Below are positions 3,226-46,667 of a DNA stretch of 46,667 nt, piece after piece. The stretch is from Escherichia phage C1: sequence record NC_054651.1; one strand, 5' to 3'. The position numbers and the translations under genes are program-made. The notes under the pieces are model-generated. The model made no database searches. It was not told where the DNA came from and was given only the letters and a program-made list of their open reading frames with translations. Positions within the stretch are counted from its first letter, which is position 1. The number at the start of each line of letters is the position of its first letter.

Positions 3226-7026
<3,801 letters not shown>

Positions 7027-15936: not shown

Positions 15937-16746
15937 ATGAAAACACTAAGCAAAATCTATTCAGACAAAGAAACGCGCAACGGTATCGCTGTCAATAAAA
16001 CCTATCTCGTGCCAGTTGAGCAAATCTATCTTGAGCCTGGATACAACATCCGCGAAGCCGATGAACAGCATGTGGAATATTTCGCGCAGTGCTGGGAATC
16101 AGGTCAGCCACTGCCAGCATTAACAGTTATTCCTGACGAGAAGGGAATCCGCATTCTTGATGGTCAACATCGCTACCTCGGCGCATTGCGTGCCATTGAG
16201 CGTGGCGCACCAATCGTTCGTATTGAGTGTAAGGATTTCACTGGCGATGAGGCGGACAAAATTGCCTTCATGGTGTCATCCAGTCAGGGGAAGCAACTTG
16301 ACCCGTTTGAGCGCGCAAAGGCTTACACACGACTGAAGGGTTTTGGCTGGACGAATGAAGAAATAGCCAAGAAGGTAGGTCGTTCAGTATCTGACGTGCA
16401 GATGCATCTGTCACTGGGTGATGTGCCTGCGGAAGTAAAAGCGCGAATCAGTGCCGGGCAAATCAGCTATGCAAATGCCGTAGCAGTAACTCGCGAGCAT
16501 GGCGATGATGCGGTAAAAGTTATCGACGAGGCAGTCGAAGAAGCTAAAGCACAAGGCAAAGACAAGGTCACAGCCAAAGTGCTGAAGTCGAAAAAGATTA
16601 AGCCAATAGACCGCCTGATTGAGTTATTGAAGCCAGCAGACCATGTGATTCTTCCTGCTGGTCATGTAGTGGCAGAGGATGAGGAGTTTATCCAGATTCC
16701 TGTTGCTGATATTCACGAGGTTATGGCAATTCTGGAGAAGATGTGA
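15937..16746 (+). CDS. ParB-like nuclease domain protein
   Basis: 269 aa; ParB/Srx N-terminal domain pattern including ILDGQHRYLGALRA; stop overlaps downstream start. Confidence 0.7.
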   Translation: MKTLSKIYSDKETRNGIAVNKTYLVPVEQIYLEPGYNIREADEQHVEYFAQCWESGQPLPALTVIPDEKGIRILDGQHRYLGALRAIERGAPIVRIECKDFTGDEADKIAFMVSSSQGKQLDPFERAKAYTRLKGFGWTNEEIAKKVGRSVSDVQMHLSLGDVPAEVKARISAGQISYANAVAVTREHGDDAVKVIDEAVEEAKAQGKDKVTAKVLKSKKIKPIDRLIELLKPADHVILPAGHVVAEDEEFIQIPVADIHEVMAILEKM

Positions 16747-17626
16747 TGATTATAAATGAAGACGTGAAATTAATTCATGGCGATTGCCTGGAAGTCATGA
16801 AGTCTATTCCTTACAGTAGCGTTGATTTGATTTTGTGCGATTTGCCGTATGGGACGACACGCAACAAGTGGGATAGCGTTATAGAACTGCAGTCGATGTG
16901 GGCCGAGTACAAGCGCATTTCCCGTGGCGCTATCGTGCTCACAGCGCAGGCGCCATTCGACAAGATTCTTGGAGCATCAAATATCGGCATGTTTCGATAT
17001 GAGTGGATCTGGCAAAAAACGAAAGCAACAGGTCACTTGAACGCAAAGATTCAGCCAATGAAAAACCATGAAAACGTCCTTGTTTTTACAAGTCACTACC
17101 AGTGTACAACCCACAGGGACTGGTAAGAAAAGCAGTTCCAACCATAAGAAAGGGTGGAAACAACGGTACGAACTACGGCAAATCAGACAAGGACGCGATT
17201 CAGGAATTTGAGAACTACCCGCGCTCAATCATTGCGATACCAAGCGAAGGCAGAACCATTCACCCAACCCAGAAGCCAGTCGCGCTGATGGAGTACCTTG
17301 TCCGCACCTACACCAACGAAGGCGACGTGGTTATGGATAACTGCATGGGTAGTGGCACGACCGGAGTCGCCTGCGTGAACACTGGTCGTCGTTTCATCGG
17401 AATAGAAAAAGATGATGAGTATTTTGAAATAGCAAAAAAAAAGGATTTTAGGATGAACGCCGAACAATTCATCGAAAAACAACTCCGCGCCAAGCTGCCT
17501 GACATCGACCAGATGGCAGTTGATGCGGCGATTCAGTATTACAAGCGCAATCAGAGCGCAAAGAAGGGTGGCATTTTTGAAGAATGCCTGAAGGTTGCAA
17601 GGCAACACATGATTAAGGTGAAGTGA
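16743..17626 (+). pseudogene. N6-adenine DNA methyltransferase (Dam-like, beta class), split by a frameshift near 17072..17126
   Basis: ORF 16743..17126 carries LILCDLPYG (motif IV-like) and ends ...[19 protein letters not shown]; overlapping ORF in another frame (17102..17626) carries HPTQKP and [12 protein letters not shown] (motif I, AdoMet binding). Confidence 0.7.
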
Positions 17627-18162
17627 TGAAACTAAAAATAAGCAAACTATTACTTGAATCAGCATTAATCTTTCAGGCTCGCAACGATGTGCGTTACTAC
17701 CTGAATGGAATCTGCTTTATGACTAATGGTCGCATTGCGTCAACTGACGGTCATCGCGCATTCATTGGTGGAAGCCATGACAATAAGCTGACAGAAAATG
17801 TGATCATCAAGATTGGCAAATCTCCAACAAAACGCTATGAGTACGCCATTATTGATACCAAGTCGAAAATTGCGACGTATCATGATGAAGCTGGCGCGAT
17901 GGTTGGTGCTGGTATCTGCGAAGAGATTGATGGCCGATTTCCTGATATTGATCGCGTAATACCAAATGAAACGAAAGCAGCAGAGGAAATCGGCTTTAAT
18001 GCTGGTTATCTCGTGGATATCGAGAAAGTGGCGAAGCTGTTTAATCCTAAATTCTGTGGCGTTAAGTTTGAATTGAATGGGAATACAAATGCCGCCGCTT
18101 GCTGCCTTAATGCGCCATCTGGCGAGACTGCGAAGATTGTTGTTATGCCTATGCGACTATAG
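17623..18162 (+). CDS. truncated DnaN-like sliding-clamp protein (beta-clamp homolog fragment)
   Basis: 179 aa; blocks [37 protein letters not shown] and C-terminal VVMPMRL match remembered E. coli DnaN blocks; about half the length of DnaN. Confidence 0.7.
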
Positions 18163-20398: not shown

Positions 20399-22278
<1,880 letters not shown>

Positions 22279-36775: not shown

Positions 36776-37426
36776 TCACCCTATTTCACATATCATATAA
36801 ACTTTCCTCATTAGGCCGTCAAGCAGCATTGGGTGTATAGAATCACATAACCCCTTCATTTGCTTTGCTTGCTTTATCTTTTCATTCTTCCATGCCTGAT
36901 GCGCTTCAATCACCGAACTGAAATAGCCTAAAAATACTGTACGACCATTGCCATCACCTATGTGCGCCTGATAAGCGCAAGAACACTTATTAAATGACAC
37001 ACCTATAGGCAAGTCACCTCTCGAGGCATTCCTTGCTGTCACGAAGTTGTTTAGGTGTGGAGGCACGTAAACACATGCTTCAGGTGAGTAAGTCAAATTA
37101 CCAGGAATCAATATATCCTTATCAAGGTGCCACCCTTCAACGTAATGGTTCTTCCACCACAAATTAAAGTTTGAAAACAGCAGCCACTCATTACAACAAG
37201 TAACATGCTCATAGGTTTTGTGTTGTTTTTTGTATTCATCATCAAAACACCTCCTGAGCATTTGATACCATTGGCTATATCCATAATGTTGCACCTTTTT
37301 ACCATCAACTTTCATCGCCACACCGAAGCCACAATCATTAACTCCAACACCAAATATTGGCTTTCTTTTTCCTTTCTTTATATCTCTGTTAAGCTCCATT
37401 TTTATGGAGAGATTTTTCTTTTGCAT
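36776..37426 (-). CDS. homing endonuclease with C-terminal AP2-like DNA-binding domain (putative)
   Basis: 216 aa; C-terminal block GVSFNKCSCAYQAHIGDGNGRTVFLGYFSSVIEAHQAW fits AP2 pattern; free-standing gene. Confidence 0.5.
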   Translation of the reverse strand: MQKKNLSIKMELNRDIKKGKRKPIFGVGVNDCGFGVAMKVDGKKVQHYGYSQWYQMLRRCFDDEYKKQHKTYEHVTCCNEWLLFSNFNLWWKNHYVEGWHLDKDILIPGNLTYSPEACVYVPPHLNNFVTARNASRGDLPIGVSFNKCSCAYQAHIGDGNGRTVFLGYFSSVIEAHQAWKNEKIKQAKQMKGLCDSIHPMLLDGLMRKVYMICEIG

Positions 37427-38352: not shown

Positions 38353-38680
38353 CAGGAATGCGTTAAAAACGTGCTCGTGGGGTAAATTTTTGCTCGTGGG
38401 GTAGGTCGTGGGGAAGGGGGCATGCCCCACTGGAAACCCTTGTGCCATGCGGCTTTTAACATGTTTGGGGAAGTGGGGCAGATTTCATACCCATCCCCTT
38501 ATAAATATATTCAAATAATCCATTTGTTAATATTATGTTAATTACTACCTATAATATGAATAATAATATTACCCATTAACCCAAATAATAATAATTTTAT
38601 TATATTACATATACTTAGAGGAGAGCTTCGTGGGGAAGGTGATGTTCCCCACGGCTGCCCCACGTTACCCACGTTAGTCG
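38350..38680. repeat. origin-like region: CGTGGGG iterons in both orientations flanking a ~120 bp AT-rich core, plus GGGGCATGCCCC palindrome
   Basis: Three direct CTCGTGGGG copies at about 38354, 38383, 38396; palindrome about 38405; AT-rich 38490..38620; further CGTGGGG/CCCCACG copies at about 38628, 38647, 38658. Confidence 0.55.
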
Positions 38681-38749
38681 TATTTGATGTTGCATGATTC
38701 AATAGTTATGATATGATTCAATCATAATTTGTTACTGGTGGAGGATTTT

Positions 38750-38968
38750 GTGAAACTTGACAAATACGGCAAAAAGAATGCAGCTCTTTCTGGATTATCG
38801 GTGGTTTCAGTAGGGGAGACTGTGATGATTGACTCGAAGAGATTTGGGGGCATTGCAAGCCTGAGGAACGCATTAAACTATTTTATGCGCAGGAATGAAG
38901 GCATGAAATTCTCAACAAAGGTTGGATACCCTGACAAAGACATGGTTTACGTAAAAAGGATTTCATGA
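38750..38968 (+). CDS. hypothetical small protein, first gene right of origin-like region
   Basis: GTG after GGAGGA SD inside track ORF 38729..38968. Confidence 0.35.
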   Translation: MKLDKYGKKNAALSGLSVVSVGETVMIDSKRFGGIASLRNALNYFMRRNEGMKFSTKVGYPDKDMVYVKRIS

Positions 38969-40521
38969 TGATCACAGCGCAAGACATCTTCAACGAAGCA
39001 AGGGAATTAAAAGTATCTCCTGCTCGCGTCGCCTTCCATCATGGCATGACGCCAAGCTCAAACATGTGGCTTGACATTAAGGAAGGCAAGGAGCGTGATG
39101 TAACGTACTCAGAAACAGAACTGACCAGTGAGCACCGGACTGATTTACTGTCTCGTTATGCAATCGCTGCAGCTCGTGCTGTTCAGTTCCCAATAAATAC
39201 ATCGTTCATGCATTTACTTGGGTGCGTTGCCAGCGCAATGACGAGAAACTTTAGCGTTGAGTATTACCATTCAGAGCTTCCAGTTTCTCTTTACGTGGTT
39301 ACTTCGCAGCCTCCATCAGCAGGGAAAACCGCTATCAACTCAATGCATATGAATCCGGTGAAGATTGAATACGACAACCTTTCCAAAAAGATGGAAAAGC
39401 AAATCATAAAAATAAATCTTCGCATCGAAGAGTTGATGAAGGCATACAAAGAGGCCAGCAATCAGAATGCAAAGGCACTAATCGGAGATGATATTGCTCG
39501 CGAAAAGGAGAAGCTGGAGGAGCTTTATACGATCACATATCCACTGACGGACGCAACGCCGGAGGCTGTTCAGCATCAGGCAATCCATGAAGGTGGTTTT
39601 TTTAATCTGATAAGTGACGAGGCAAGCGTTCTTAACACATGTCTTGGCCTCTCTTACGGAAAGGAAGGTGGAAAGGCAAACGCCGAAGTCATCCTGAAGG
39701 GCTGGGATGGCGGATTTATTGGTTCTGCTCGTGTTGGTCGTGGCGTTTCATCTGGTTATGTGCTTGGAAACATAAGTGTGATTGCTCAGGATGAAAGTAT
39801 TGATGCCATTCTTGCCGCTGGCGACAGGGGGAACGGGCTTTCTGAACGTTTCCTCATGTTGCGAGAGCAATCAATGCTTGGCTATCGCGAACACTGGGAC
39901 ATGGTTAATGATTGCCCTGTAAGCAAGCCAATGCCAGACAGCTTGAGGTCGGAATATGCAAGATTTATACATAATGTTGTGTCAGCAGAAAAAACAAAAC
40001 TGACGCTTCACAATGACTCAGCAAGAATGATCGGCCTGTTACGAAATCAGTGGGAGAAAAACTTCCTTCCCGGCGGTAAGTGGGACCACGTTCTTCTTCG
40101 TGGCGCGATGGGTAAAGCTGATAAGCAAATAATCCGTCTGGCAGCAATATTTCACGCTGCTGAAAACTGGTGCGATGGAGGAAAGCGTTCAAAGATTATC
40201 GGTGAAAATGAGATTAGTCGCGCCATCAGTGTTTATGACGCACTGACAAAAACATTCACTGATGCTGTTGAATCAAATGGGTATGCTGGTGAGCGTTCTG
40301 AATTTGATGTTGTTGCCGAAAAGCTACGCTCTGCCGCTCAGAAAGGAAAAACAAACGTAACGGTGAAGTGGCTTTATGATTCACTTAAAAACGTGCGACC
40401 ATTCAAAGGGATACCTAAAATTTATGACCGACTCAGATCAAGCGTATTGCCATCACTTGAAGAGGATGGTTACTGCGTTTTTATTGGTAATACTGTCCAC
40501 ATTAATCCGAGGTTGAAATGA
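38965..40521 (+). CDS. large hypothetical protein, putative replication-associated (DUF3987-like?)
   Basis: 518 aa; degenerate P-loop-like SQPPSAGKT; adjacent to origin-like region; function not resolved. Confidence 0.4.
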   Translation: MMITAQDIFNEARELKVSPARVAFHHGMTPSSNMWLDIKEGKERDVTYSETELTSEHRTDLLSRYAIAAARAVQFPINTSFMHLLGCVASAMTRNFSVEYYHSELPVSLYVVTSQPPSAGKTAINSMHMNPVKIEYDNLSKKMEKQIIKINLRIEELMKAYKEASNQNAKALIGDDIAREKEKLEELYTITYPLTDATPEAVQHQAIHEGGFFNLISDEASVLNTCLGLSYGKEGGKANAEVILKGWDGGFIGSARVGRGVSSGYVLGNISVIAQDESIDAILAAGDRGNGLSERFLMLREQSMLGYREHWDMVNDCPVSKPMPDSLRSEYARFIHNVVSAEKTKLTLHNDSARMIGLLRNQWEKNFLPGGKWDHVLLRGAMGKADKQIIRLAAIFHAAENWCDGGKRSKIIGENEISRAISVYDALTKTFTDAVESNGYAGERSEFDVVAEKLRSAAQKGKTNVTVKWLYDSLKNVRPFKGIPKIYDRLRSSVLPSLEEDGYCVFIGNTVHINPRLK

Positions 40522-40709
40522 GAACAATATCAGGCGAACTTTGCCGCTCAGAAGGTTCATGGCATTTCAGACCGTATGGTTATTCGACGTGGTTTTTCTG
40601 GAGTGGTATTAACAAAGTATGGATTCGATCTAATTACCACGTGCTTGATGATTACTGGCACAGATTTTGTATTGGTTATGTTGATATTTCAAAATTGATG
40701 ATTAAATGA
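40518..40709 (+). CDS. hypothetical small Trp-rich protein
   Basis: 63 aa ORF. Confidence 0.3.
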   Translation: MRTISGELCRSEGSWHFRPYGYSTWFFWSGINKVWIRSNYHVLDDYWHRFCIGYVDISKLMIK

Positions 40710-40718
40710 GGTAATTAT

Positions 40719-41024
40719 ATGGCTAACCTGCAACTTGCCGTCAAAGGTGAATACTTCGATGCCATGATTCGCGGAGAGAAAACGGAAGAGTATCGCCTTT
40801 TTAATGACTACTGGAAGAAGCGCCTTATTAACTTTAAAGATAGCGGACAGATTGGAAGGAAGTACGAAAGGTTAATTATCACAAAAGGATATCCAAAGAA
40901 GGACGATAAATCCAGGCGTATTGATATCCCATACGATGGATGGACGGTTAAGACCATCACCCACCCACACTTCGGTCCTGACCCGGTGGAAGTGTTCGCA
41001 ATAAAAGTTAACCTCAAAGCATAA
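40719..41024 (+). CDS. ASCH-like domain protein
   Basis: 101 aa; N-terminal LAVKGEYFDAMIRGEKTEEYR resembles ASCH signature. Confidence 0.45.
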   Translation: MANLQLAVKGEYFDAMIRGEKTEEYRLFNDYWKKRLINFKDSGQIGRKYERLIITKGYPKKDDKSRRIDIPYDGWTVKTITHPHFGPDPVEVFAIKVNLKA

Positions 41025-41026
41025 CA

Positions 41027-41052
41027 AAAACCCTCCATATGGAGGGTTTATT
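41027..41052. terminator. bidirectional rho-independent terminator
   Basis: AAACCCTCC-atat-GGAGGGTTT hairpin, T-run; between convergent gene ends. Confidence 0.7.
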
Positions 41053-42006
41053 TTATCTTCTAACTGACATTTTCTCTATCAACTCGCCAGCGTCATAAAT
41101 TTTTCTCCTGATTCTCTTTGCCATCCTGATAGTGTCAGCATCATCAGGAAGCATCACCGGAAGTCCTGCGTTTTCCGCAGCGCAAAGTTCGTTAAATTTA
41201 TAGTTAACTATGCAACGCAATATCGCCTTCATCTCATCGCTAACAGAACGCACCACTTCCCACATGTTTTCCGGCGACCAGCAGCACCAGACATGAGCTC
41301 CAGTGAAGTAATGGCACTTCCACGCGTCGGCATAATCAGATACCAGGTAAATGAACTTTCCGTTATCTTCTCCGATTGGGCTTATCGCCCCGCGCGTGAG
41401 CTTTCCGTTGATAGCTGAGTCTTTGTTGTATCCAGCACGGAAAAACGTTCTGAATGAATCACCATCCATGCCAATGAACGCCACGTTACACGGCTTCATT
41501 GTGTCAGCGCGTATCATCTCAACCGCAATAAGCTCTCCAGATTTAGCTCTGACGACGTTAACGTCGCAACCAATACCATTTATCAACGTCCACTCATTCA
41601 TCGCGACACGCGTCGTTTTAGCCATGATTGCGGCAACTTCCTGCTCGGTGATGAAGTCGTCATTATGATTTATCTTCGGTAACTCCTTCCTGATTGCTTC
41701 CAGTTTTTCACGCGGGTGCATATTCAGGAATCCACCAAGTGCCTCAAGTGCTTCGGGAAAGCTCATGCCAGAGAGTTTCATCAGCCAGGTGATTCCGCTG
41801 CCGTTTCCACACTGGTTACAGATGGCGCCGCCGTCACCTTTGTAGTCCAGGTTATCATCGAATCGAAATCTGTCGCGACCGCCGCAACTTGGGCATGGCT
41901 GGTGCTTACCATTGAAAACTCTGCTATTCACACTGACGATAGACATGATGGCGGCCTGCCAGTTCCCAAGCATTTTTGGCTCAATGTCTTTCCAGTCGTA
42001 TCTCAT
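41053..42006 (-). CDS. DNA primase (zinc-ribbon + primase core)
   Basis: Track ORF 41053..42117; likely start MRYDWKD; zinc-ribbon CPSCGGRDRFRFDD...CNQCGNGSG typical of phage primases. Confidence 0.65.
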   Translation of the reverse strand: MRYDWKDIEPKMLGNWQAAIMSIVSVNSRVFNGKHQPCPSCGGRDRFRFDDNLDYKGDGGAICNQCGNGSGITWLMKLSGMSFPEALEALGGFLNMHPREKLEAIRKELPKINHNDDFITEQEVAAIMAKTTRVAMNEWTLINGIGCDVNVVRAKSGELIAVEMIRADTMKPCNVAFIGMDGDSFRTFFRAGYNKDSAINGKLTRGAISPIGEDNGKFIYLVSDYADAWKCHYFTGAHVWCCWSPENMWEVVRSVSDEMKAILRCIVNYKFNELCAAENAGLPVMLPDDADTIRMAKRIRRKIYDAGELIEKMSVRR

Positions 42007-42008
42007 AA

Positions 42009-42060
42009 ATTGACCCTTGATTGTTGGTGTAGATTGAGTATAAGCTAACTGACGTAGAAA
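42009..42060 (+). promoter_or_regulatory. promoter region for rightward replication/recombination operon with GTGTAGATTG and TGACGTAGAAAC motifs
   Basis: TTGATT-16-TATAAG candidate; same motif pair as at 15690..15735. Confidence 0.45.
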
Positions 42061-42081
42061 CATCAACAAAAGGATATAGCA

Positions 42082-42345
42082 GTGTTCCTTGATAGCATTT
42101 TTAAGAGGATTTTTCATGGCAAGCCAATCCCTGTTGCCTTCGGATACCCGCCACGAAGCAACACATGGTTAACCATATACAGAAGACAGAGAACTGGAGA
42201 ATGGATTTTTGAGTGGGATGATTTGTTTGCCGATGAGAGGCCAGAAGATTATCTATGGAATCTTAGTTATATGTATTTTTATAACGGAATAGATGATGAA
42301 ACAAAGAAACAAGCAATTGAACACCTTGGCGCGAGGATTTTGTGA
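42082..42345 (+). CDS. hypothetical protein
   Basis: 87 aa ORF, GTG start after AAGGAT. Confidence 0.35.
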   Translation: MFLDSIFKRIFHGKPIPVAFGYPPRSNTWLTIYRRQRTGEWIFEWDDLFADERPEDYLWNLSYMYFYNGIDDETKKQAIEHLGARIL

Positions 42346-44291
42346 TGCATAAAATCGACGCAATGATTGCGGAACTTGACATAGATAAATTGCGGTCAGT
42401 TGTTCATACAGGGGAAATTGAGCCACGACCATATCAGTGGCTGGTTTATGAAAAGACGGCTGAAGTTATCCGCAAGTTTGGCAAAGACCCGAAACCAAGT
42501 TTTGTGACTGCATCGGTAGGTGCGGGAAAGACCATTATGATTGCCATGATTGCGCGACGCTTTCAGGATATGGGGTGGGAAGGTCTTGTTATTGCCAGGC
42601 AGGGGGAAATTATTGAGCAGGATGCGGAAGAGCTGTGGAATCTGAGTGTTAAAAACTCACTTTTCAGCGCGTCTCTTGGCAGAAAATCAACGGCATACCC
42701 GCTTATTGCTGGTACTGAGGGAACAATAATAAATGGCCTTTTCGATAAGAAGGACGAGTCAGGTAATGTTCTTTCTAAAGGTGCGCTTTCCGATTTTTGC
42801 CCTCGCTATATCCTTATTGACGAATGCCACCAGATGAACTGGGAGGACGTGGTAAGCGAAAGTCCTGAAACGCAATATGGCGTAATAATGACTGAGCTTA
42901 ACCGCAGATGTAAAGCTAAATACGGACATGATGTCATTGTTATTGGATACACAGGTAGCCCGTTTCGTGGCACCGACTCGATTAAGGGTGCTTACTGGAA
43001 ACATGAAATAGTAAACATTGACACTAAATATCTTGTTGATATTGGGTTTCTTGTGCCTACGATTTTTGGCCTGCATGACATTGATGATTTGCATTACGAC
43101 CTGTCAGCATTTGAGGCGTCAGGAAGCGATGGAACGCAGGACTTCACTGCCGAGCAACTCAAGCAGATGCAAAAAGAAATCCTTGAGCAAGGGACACTCA
43201 CGCAGAAAATCATGCTCAAGGTTATGGAGCTGACAAAAAACAGAAATGGCGTATTGATCACATGCGCTGGCAAGAAGCACTGTCAGGAGGCGGCAAAATA
43301 TTTACCTGAAGGAAGTTATGCGATCGTAACTGAAGATATGGGTATGAAAGCCAGACGCAAGGCATTAAAGGATGCATACACTGGCAAGATTAAATATGTT
43401 TTCCAGATTGGTTGCTTGACGACAGGCGTCAATATCCCACTCTGGGATACAAGCGTCATATTACGAAAAATAATGTCACTCACTCTTCTTGTGCAGCTGC
43501 TTGGTCGCGGGATGCGCCTGCTGAAGAAAGAGCAAATTGATGCAGGGTATCATAAAGAGGACCATCTGGTTCTTGACTTCTCTGGCACGATGTTTGAGCT
43601 TGGTCAGCTATATGCAGACCCAATTCTGGAAGAAGCCGAAGCGCAACGTTCAAAACGCAGTGGTGAACAGGTTCCGTGTCCTAAGTGCGGAACAATGAAC
43701 AGCCCATATGCGCGTCGCTGCATTGGCAAAGATGCATTGTCGCCAGATGGTAGATGCGAGGAGTTTTTCAGTTATATTCGTTGCGGTTTCGATAAGCACG
43801 GCATCCGTATTTTTGATGATGGTTGCGGTACTAAAAACGACCCAACGGCGCGTTATTGCCGACATTGCGATCACGTTTTGCGCGACCCGAATGCGGCACT
43901 TAATGAGCGTGCGTATACCGATAATGAGTGGGCTGATGTTATGGATTTCAAAGTCCAGTTAACGAAGGATGGAGAAGGTATTTTGTATCGCTACTGGATT
44001 AATCGTTGTGATGGGAAAGAGGGATGGGCTAACGAAGTTTTCTACCCCTATGGCGGCGCAACTCACATGAAAAACATGTTTAAGGCAAAAGCGGTCTTTC
44101 CTCACCTTGATGATAAGTCAATGGCGGGTAAAATCCTGAAGTGCCAGAACGCCAAGCAGTTCATGATGTATGCGGGATTGATTAAAGCGCCAAAACGCAT
44201 CACACATCGTATTAACGATAAAGGTCGTGACATAATCCACAGAAAAGATTTTGCAGGAGAGAATAGTGAAAAAGCGATTCAAGCAGCATGA
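42342..44291 (+). CDS. superfamily-2 DNA helicase (DExH box) with C-terminal zinc-ribbon region
   Basis: 649 aa; Walker A ASVGAGKT, DECH box (LIDECHQ), motif VI-like QLLGRGMR, C-terminal CPKC...C...C cluster. Confidence 0.8.
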   Translation: MMHKIDAMIAELDIDKLRSVVHTGEIEPRPYQWLVYEKTAEVIRKFGKDPKPSFVTASVGAGKTIMIAMIARRFQDMGWEGLVIARQGEIIEQDAEELWNLSVKNSLFSASLGRKSTAYPLIAGTEGTIINGLFDKKDESGNVLSKGALSDFCPRYILIDECHQMNWEDVVSESPETQYGVIMTELNRRCKAKYGHDVIVIGYTGSPFRGTDSIKGAYWKHEIVNIDTKYLVDIGFLVPTIFGLHDIDDLHYDLSAFEASGSDGTQDFTAEQLKQMQKEILEQGTLTQKIMLKVMELTKNRNGVLITCAGKKHCQEAAKYLPEGSYAIVTEDMGMKARRKALKDAYTGKIKYVFQIGCLTTGVNIPLWDTSVILRKIMSLTLLVQLLGRGMRLLKKEQIDAGYHKEDHLVLDFSGTMFELGQLYADPILEEAEAQRSKRSGEQVPCPKCGTMNSPYARRCIGKDALSPDGRCEEFFSYIRCGFDKHGIRIFDDGCGTKNDPTARYCRHCDHVLRDPNAALNERAYTDNEWADVMDFKVQLTKDGEGILYRYWINRCDGKEGWANEVFYPYGGATHMKNMFKAKAVFPHLDDKSMAGKILKCQNAKQFMMYAGLIKAPKRITHRINDKGRDIIHRKDFAGENSEKAIQAA

Positions 44292-46365: not shown

Positions 46366-46667
46366 ATGGCACGCGGCGTAAACAAAGTGATTATTGTCGG
46401 CACTCTCGGTAACGACCCTGAAGTTAAATATTCAGCATCAGGCTCTGCAATTGCCAACCTTTCCGTTGCAACATCTGAGCAGTGGAAAGACAAGCAAACA
46501 GGAGAAAAGAAAGAGCAGACTGAATGGCATCGCGTTGTTATCTTTGGAAAACTCGCAGAAGTTGCAGGAGAATACCTTCGCAAAGGATCGCAGGTTTATA
46601 TAGAAGGCCAGCTTCGCACTCGTAAGTGGGCTGACAGCAACGGCGTAGACCGATATACCACTGAGAT
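46366..46667 (+). CDS. ssb: single-stranded DNA-binding protein, N-terminal part (continues at 1..181)
   Basis: [20 protein letters not shown]...[39 protein letters not shown]... nearly identical in pattern to E. coli SSB OB-fold; runs off window end. Confidence 0.9.

Follow-up and report, generated by a model that had tools for sequence, protein, structure and literature searches.

Which protein unwinds the DNA of a phage that appears to lack a polymerase of its own, and does it also act at the origin? These questions are raised by one gene in the 46,667-nucleotide stretch of Escherichia phage C1 (NC_054651.1) that was analyzed here as a whole and is called the window. The gene encodes a protein of 518 amino acids (aa) and lies beside an origin-like region. 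A preliminary description, made from the DNA letters, left the protein unassigned, with DUF3987 as a guess, and suggested an initiator or a helicase-loader type of replication protein. We consider that the 518-aa protein is the replicative helicase of the phage, with a probability of roughly 0.8. It would be an AAA+ ring of the MCM clade that works with an adjacent primase, the primers being passed to the host Pol III. Replicative helicases of the DUF3987 kind are already known, and sister genomes are already annotated in this way.

Identity of the 518-aa protein

The gene is located as follows.

38965-40521, + strand: DUF3987-family helicase gene, 518 aa, ATG start (URP83765.1 in ON239132.1)

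The window matches Escherichia phage S192 (ON239132.1, a member of the genus Deseoctovirus with 46,667 bp) at 100% identity, in a rotated and reverse-complemented form. In the helicase region the window position equals 79605 minus the record position. URP83765.1 is labeled "hypothetical protein" in ON239132.1. The RefSeq orthologues in STGO-35-1 (gp67), DS8 (gp30), Vi II-E1 (VIP0048), and IME207 are named "DNA helicase", and the note "DUF3987" is attached to one RefSeq orthologue.

In the Pfam search, residues 79-429 match positions 6-356 of the 364 in the DUF3987 hidden Markov model (HMM; PF13148). The score of 120.5 bits (E 1.3e-34) is far above the gathering cut-off of 27, and the early guess at the family was right. 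The homologues aligned for this analysis, 52 sequences reaching down to 21% identity, all match Pfam DUF3987 (52/52). The protein also matches PHROG 2373 "DNA helicase" from end to end (E 2e-194), and its last 75 residues match a separate family, PHROG 7327. No model for the protein was found in NCBIfam. Membership of the 518-aa protein in DUF3987 is borne out by its HMM match, its motifs, its winged helix, and its association with a primase, and no confident homology to a non-replicative family was seen. A profile of the 52 homologues finds 3,810 cluster representatives (50% identity) of the family at E <= 1e-30, and this number rises to 13,167 at E <= 1e-3. The Pfam score of 120 bits is low compared with the >300 bits of P0070-P0073, and the protein is therefore placed in a divergent phage subfamily.

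Phage DUF3987 proteins were described by Kazlauskas et al. 2016 as divergent superfamily 6 (SF6), MCM-related helicases with a predicted replicative function. The same study noted the winged helix-turn-helix at their C terminus and their association with AEP or DnaG primases, and published an HHsearch link to MCM for another DUF3987 protein (PMC4889955). In Kazlauskas et al. 2018, DUF3987 is one of the ATPase domains listed as replacements of MCM, RepA, or DnaB beside primases (PMC5862659). In the literature searched, there is one biochemical study of the family. In this 2025 study, AgaPH, a PriCT-DUF3987 protein of Seonamhaeicola sp. S2-3, was purified and found to be an oligomeric, ATP/dATP-dependent 5'->3' helicase. 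AgaPH binds its primase-polymerase and stimulates strand-displacement synthesis, and both Walker A and Walker B are required for its activity (PMC11724360). The 518-aa protein shares with AgaPH and other DUF3987 helicases the family, the Walker A variant, Walker B, a small C-terminal winged helix, and partnership with a primase. However, AgaPH carries PriCT, whereas the 518-aa protein has neither a PriCT nor an AEP module. Its probable partner is instead a separate, convergently transcribed DnaG-type (Zn-ribbon) primase.

Domain organization and catalytic motifs

An AlphaFold2 model was built from the 52-sequence alignment and is confident, with a predicted local distance difference test score (pLDDT) of 90.3 and a predicted template modeling score (pTM) of 0.86. 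The parts of the protein, with strands and helices taken from the model, are as follows.

38965-39249, + strand: N-terminal region, residues 1-95, with short helices and a flexible linker
39307-39330, + strand: Walker A QPPSAGKT, residues 115-122, after strand 110-114 and beginning helix 121
39337-39519, + strand: insertion of a long helical hairpin (coiled coil) that follows the P-loop helix, residues ~125-185 (model helices 121-163 and 167-185)
39598-39621, + strand: Walker B FFNLISDE, residues 212-219, with strand 212-217; S217 and E219 invariant
39715-39759, + strand: beta-hairpin ahead of sensor 1, residues 251-265 (strands 251-256 and 260-265), before strand 267-274
39787-39789, + strand: sensor 1 Q275, invariant
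39838-39855, + strand: LSERFL, residues 292-297, with arginine finger R295, invariant and just before strand 296-300
39937-40284, + strand: helical lid domain, residues 325-440, in which K384 is invariant and R379 is the candidate sensor 2
40291-40518, + strand: C-terminal winged-helix domain, residues 443-518

The segment SQPPSAGKT, which occupies residues 114-122, had been called a degenerate P-loop. Compared with the consensus GxxxxGK[ST], its sole change is the replacement of the first G by Q. P116 and K121 are invariant across the 52 homologues, and conservation is 90% or more at Q115, G120, and S/T122. Because the first glycine alone is replaced and the motif is conserved, the P-loop is not functionally degenerate.

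The residues invariant in the 52 sequences include K121, E219, R256, Q275, R295, and K384. R256 lies within the 251-265 hairpin, which by analogy probably represents the pre-sensor-1 hairpin and a pore loop that contacts DNA. R295 agrees in position and context with the arginine finger of MCM, whose motif is SRFD. Two parts of the model are less ordered: linker residues 41-50 (mean pLDDT 61) and a disordered loop at residues 227-240. The helical-hairpin insertion falls within the DUF3987 HMM match. Weak coiled-coil matches in Pfam and the PDB map to it and are regarded as spurious because of this long hairpin.

Predicted fold and its relation to MCM

When the model was compared with the PDB by Foldseek, the top 35 matches were all MCM (best E 6e-5). 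Replicative MCMs outscored ComM, and the AAA+ core alone aligned with MCMs. The model shows the MCM-like AAA+ fold with a probable pre-sensor-1 hairpin, an SRF-type arginine finger, and a candidate sensor 2.

Judged by this model, the 518-aa protein shares the MCM fold, would work in the same manner, and belongs to the MCM clade, yet it stands outside the MCM family proper. It differs from the archaeal and eukaryotic MCMs (SF6 AAA+) in having no match to the Pfam MCM family PF00493 and in the extra coiled-coil hairpin after the P-loop helix. An OB-fold/zinc N-terminal domain of the MCM type was not found in residues 1-95 of the model. As for the helix-2 insert of MCM, no hairpin is visible in helix 199-208, as judged without coordinates; the 125-185 insertion and the 227-240 loop are present. 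MCM-like helicases of mobile elements, namely SCCmec Cch (5dgk), SaPI Rep/primase-helicase (8tch, 7ola), and the BcMCM of a Bacillus cereus prophage (PMC2715239), belong to other sequence families, and structurally they are less similar to the 518-aa protein than true MCMs are.

The Walker A motif of DnaB is ARPSMGKT, which is similar to QPPSAGKT and had suggested a DnaB-like protein with a RecA fold. This reading was ruled out, as the structural neighbors are AAA+ and not RecA-type. Pfam DnaB_C, the RecA-type motor, has no match in the 518-aa protein or in the 52 homologues. DnaB (SF4, RecA fold), as a partner of DnaG-type primases, is the probable functional equivalent of the 518-aa protein, but the two differ in fold class. 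A DnaC/IstB or DnaA AAA+ domain was likewise not found in the 518-aa protein, which is not a member of the DnaB, DnaC, or DnaA family.

Linkage to primases and the apparent lack of a phage polymerase

The primase of the phage is encoded on the opposite strand, downstream of the helicase gene.

41053-42117, - strand: DnaG-type primase with a P4-alpha-type zinc ribbon and a primase body (open reading frame (ORF) from the first ATG; the GenBank coding sequence is 41053-42063)

The assignment is given by Pfam Zn_Ribbon_Prim (E 1.4e-13) and by PHROG 510 'DNA primase' (E 5e-83), as well as by the existing annotation. In relatives, the link between primase and DUF3987 is closer. A Zn_ribbon_DnaG protein (locus L004) or a Zn_Ribbon_Prim protein (a metagenomic phage, L011) is encoded directly upstream and overlaps the start of DUF3987, and in a marine Tara phage (L003) a 379-aa gene occupies the primase position upstream of DUF3987. 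The two functions are also found in single proteins. P0070 combines a Zn-ribbon, Toprim, and DUF3987, and P0108 is a fusion of Zn_ribbon_DnaG with DUF3987 whose helicase part scores 575 bits against the 52-homologue subfamily profile. Further DUF3987 fusions carry an AEP/BT4734-like domain (P0182) or PriCT_2 (P0192), and NrS-1-type modules occur in other relatives. In P0153, a metagenomic protein of 666 aa, the DnaB N-terminal (primase-binding) domain precedes DUF3987, and the DnaB motor domain was not found there. P0153 looks like a natural domain swap, which argues that DUF3987 can replace DnaB.

A DNA polymerase gene seems to be missing from the phage itself: the replication genes and the large ORFs yielded none, the other large ORFs being structural. 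A 178-aa protein (17626-18162, + strand) is annotated 'DNA polymerase' in ON239132.1. It has no Pfam match; its best match is PHROG 3007, a family of RusA-like Holliday junction resolvases (E 1.9e-62), and there is a weaker one to a processivity-factor PHROG.

A probable replicative helicase and its alternatives

A replicative helicase, and not a loader, is favored because a primase is fused or adjacent in relatives, because of the DnaB_N swap, and because the phage has no polymerase. Family, fold, synteny, and domain fusions give good support to the replication role that had been proposed for the gene. In the mechanism that we propose, DUF3987 subunits would assemble into a ring. ATP would be hydrolyzed at the subunit interfaces by Walker A K121, Walker B D218/E219, and sensor 1 Q275, and the ATPase site would be completed by R295, acting in trans as the arginine finger, and by sensor 2 R379. 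The ring would draw single-stranded DNA through its center via the 251-265 hairpin, probably with 5'->3' polarity by analogy with the one tested member of the family. The helicase and the neighboring DnaG-type primase would form a primosome. As the phage has no DNA polymerase, this primosome would have to supply its primers to the Pol III replisome of the host.

Several observations weigh against this assignment. Pfam MCM (PF00493) has no match at E up to 5 among the 52 homologues. At the same threshold, no weak MCM or AAA match recurred; there was scattered coiled-coil noise, and AAA_23 appeared in 2 sequences. Sequence and profile searches of the PDB found no solved relative, only chance coiled-coil matches to residues 125-185 (E 0.02 or worse). 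With no sequence match to Pfam MCM or to a solved structure, the link to MCM rests on the predicted model and on the published HHsearch result. Furthermore, the phage encodes an SF2 helicase and a recombination set (ERF, PDDEXK exonuclease, SSB, VRR-NUC, and a RusA-like protein), and it is therefore possible that the protein serves recombination-dependent replication, in place of or besides origin-dependent replication. Finally, the iteron region described below is also a divergent promoter region, and its repeats could therefore be operators.

The preliminary description had the family and the process right; its suggestion of a helicase loader did not hold up. A loader or AAA+ remodeler would act like lambda P or DnaC, recruiting the host DnaB to the phage origin or loading it there. 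Such a role would suit a phage that has no polymerase and must use host replication proteins, and it would suit an AAA+ ATPase beside an origin-like region. However, the fold neighbors, a hairpin that occupies the pre-sensor-1 position and carries the invariant R256, the DnaB_N fusion in P0153, and the biochemistry of AgaPH all disfavor it, and we regard a loader as quite improbable. A motor for recombination or branch migration, that is, a translocase like MCM8/9, ComM, or RuvB that serves recombination-dependent replication or repair, would agree with the recombination genes of the phage. It is also improbable, as the consistent physical link in this family, seen in fusions and overlapping genes, is to primases and not to recombinases, and replicative MCMs score above ComM. 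An AAA+ protein with no role in replication, for example a chaperone of the MoxR/RavA type or a BrxL-like factor of defense or counter-defense, is already disfavored and has very little chance of being correct.

The iteron region and a possible initiator function

The origin-like region lies to the left of the helicase gene, as had been described.

38376-38664, no strand: origin-like region with CGTGGGG iterons flanking an AT-rich stretch at 38500-38620 (putative origin function)

All six CGTGGGG sites in the 46.7-kb window fall within 38376-38664, and the GC content drops to 15% at 38500-38599. The three sites on the left are direct repeats, and those on the right are one direct and two inverted. 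The layout includes CGTGGGG-N10-CCCCAC palindromes, one on the left and a second 222-231 bp away, beyond the AT-rich stretch. No DnaA box was found at the region; the single TTATNCACA of the genome is at 21341. The literature was searched for the repeats of Vi II-E1 and for Deseoctovirus replication, and nothing useful was found.

The architecture is kept beside the gene in Vi II-E1, STGO-35-1, DS8, and Bas79, with conserved palindrome arms and spacers that vary. Clusters with a related core are also found beside much more distant helicases. In the Pectobacterium phage Ymer (L009, helicase 49% identical), five of seven GTGGGG sites are clustered at 138-230. In the metagenomic phage L011 (36% identical), six of eight lie at 6579-6959, immediately downstream of the gene, and the marine Tara phage L003 (34% identical) has four TGGGGCA sites at 4083-4401. 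None of the shuffles of these three loci reached the observed site counts. The recurrence of GTGGGG/AT-rich clusters beside helicases of 34-49% identity suggests a conserved type of origin and a conserved reader protein, both of which travel with the helicase. The protein encoded by the small gene upstream of the helicase is confined to close relatives and therefore cannot be this reader. With the upstream protein excluded, the winged helix of the helicase is a candidate reader.

It is thus conceivable that the 518-aa protein is an initiator-helicase, although we hold this view only tentatively. The winged helix, or the N-terminus, would bind the GTGGGG iterons, and the ring would assemble, melt the AT-rich stretch, and then act as the fork helicase. 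This extends the assignment as a replicative helicase and does not contradict it. The winged-helix C-terminus also exists as a separate module (PHROG 7327), and this, together with the clusters described above, speaks for such a function. However, conservation across the phages is just as strong for the primase and the SF2 helicase, either of which could be the reader instead. The T1-like loci L002 and L010 have no GGGG-core cluster in 11-13 kb of DNA, and the repeats may be transcriptional operators. Winged helices of the MCM type, moreover, often serve protein contacts and not sequence-specific DNA binding.

Self-loading at the adjacent GTGGGG/AT-rich region, by analogy with the initiator-helicases P4 alpha, SaPI Rep, and viral E1/LTag, is likewise possible, but we would not expect it. 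The S192 primase has a zinc ribbon of the P4-alpha type, and the order of helicase and then winged helix next to iterons follows the same functional logic. P4 alpha, however, is a single polypeptide with an SF3 helicase and an origin-binding winged helix, whereas in S192 the primase and the helicase are separate genes and the motor would be of the MCM clade. SaPI Rep binds its own origin directly, whereas the 518-aa protein is only a candidate for such binding. A complete pathway in which the self-loading winged helix reads the iterons, the 15%-GC spacer is melted, and the MCM-fold ring moves 5'->3' on the lagging strand and couples the DnaG-type primase to the host Pol III holoenzyme is rather doubtful. 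If true, it would mean that an AAA+ motor of the MCM clade does the job of DnaB in the E. coli replisome, in a coliphage that is easily handled.

Probable operon and neighboring genes

The other genes and signals near the helicase gene are as follows.

38738-38968, + strand: small upstream gene; its product has 76 aa when counted from GTG, and its stop overlaps the helicase start as ATGA
40518-40709, + strand: 63-aa ORF whose ATG overlaps the helicase stop (ATGA); unannotated in the S192 record
40719-41024, + strand: 101-aa protein encoded by the gene that closes the unit; PHROG 625 (unknown function)
41028-41049, no strand: hairpin resembling a bidirectional terminator, which separates the helicase unit from the convergent primase gene
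42342-44291, + strand: SF2 helicase, RadD-like (ResIII, Helicase_C, and zinc ribbons), assigned by Pfam, PHROG, and NCBIfam

The helicase gene had been placed in one operon with the small upstream gene and a gene for an ASCH-like protein. The operon fits, with its ATGA overlaps and the terminator after the 101-aa gene, but the ASCH label is weak, as Pfam ASCH matches residues 6-27 of the 101-aa protein at E 0.13, below threshold. An orthologue of this protein is named ASCH domain protein in RefSeq. DS8 has at this position a longer gene, of 417 nt, with the annotation 'RNA-binding protein'. The helicase start is preceded by an AAGGA ribosome-binding site. The small upstream protein was not found outside close relatives, and its structure model gave ambiguous winged-helix-like matches only. 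The 63-aa ORF has no match in Pfam or PHROG; its orthologues are annotated in STGO-35-1 (gp68) and Bas79 (Bas79_0078).

The SF2 helicase is a conserved companion of the DUF3987 gene and is present in the loci of relatives. Beyond it lie genes for VRR-NUC, the PDDEXK exonuclease, ERF, and SSB, the last of which is split by the window boundary (46366-46667 and 1-181). In Vi II-E1 (L005, 5700-6704) and DS8 (L007, 5423-6427), an HNH endonuclease gene of about 1 kb separates the primase gene from that of the SF2 helicase. At this place S192 has just an 87-aa ORF (42082-42345, PHROG 5903), and its HNH endonuclease is encoded elsewhere (36776-37426, - strand, PHROG 953). Farther away, at 15937-17626 on the + strand, a ParB-HTH/KorB-like protein (269 aa) adjoins an apparently split or truncated N6/N4 DNA methylase, of which a 174-aa ORF matches the C-terminal third of the Pfam model only.

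Significance of the DUF3987 helicase

The gain in annotation is small: URP83765.1 would be better named "DUF3987-family (MCM-like AAA+) replicative DNA helicase", which matches its RefSeq orthologues. The wider interest is in the DUF3987 family, which is very large and has no solved structure that matches by sequence. The 5'->3' unwinding by AgaPH, the only DUF3987 helicase tested, deserves attention since the MCMs, the closest relatives in fold, run 3'->5'. The conserved pairing of iterons with the helicase is a further point of interest. With its stand-alone DUF3987 helicase and separate DnaG-type primase, its apparent lack of a polymerase, and a compact, conserved iteron/AT-rich region beside the gene, this virulent E. 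coli phage offers a practical system. It could reveal the way in which a motor of this kind is loaded and coupled to the bacterial replisome.

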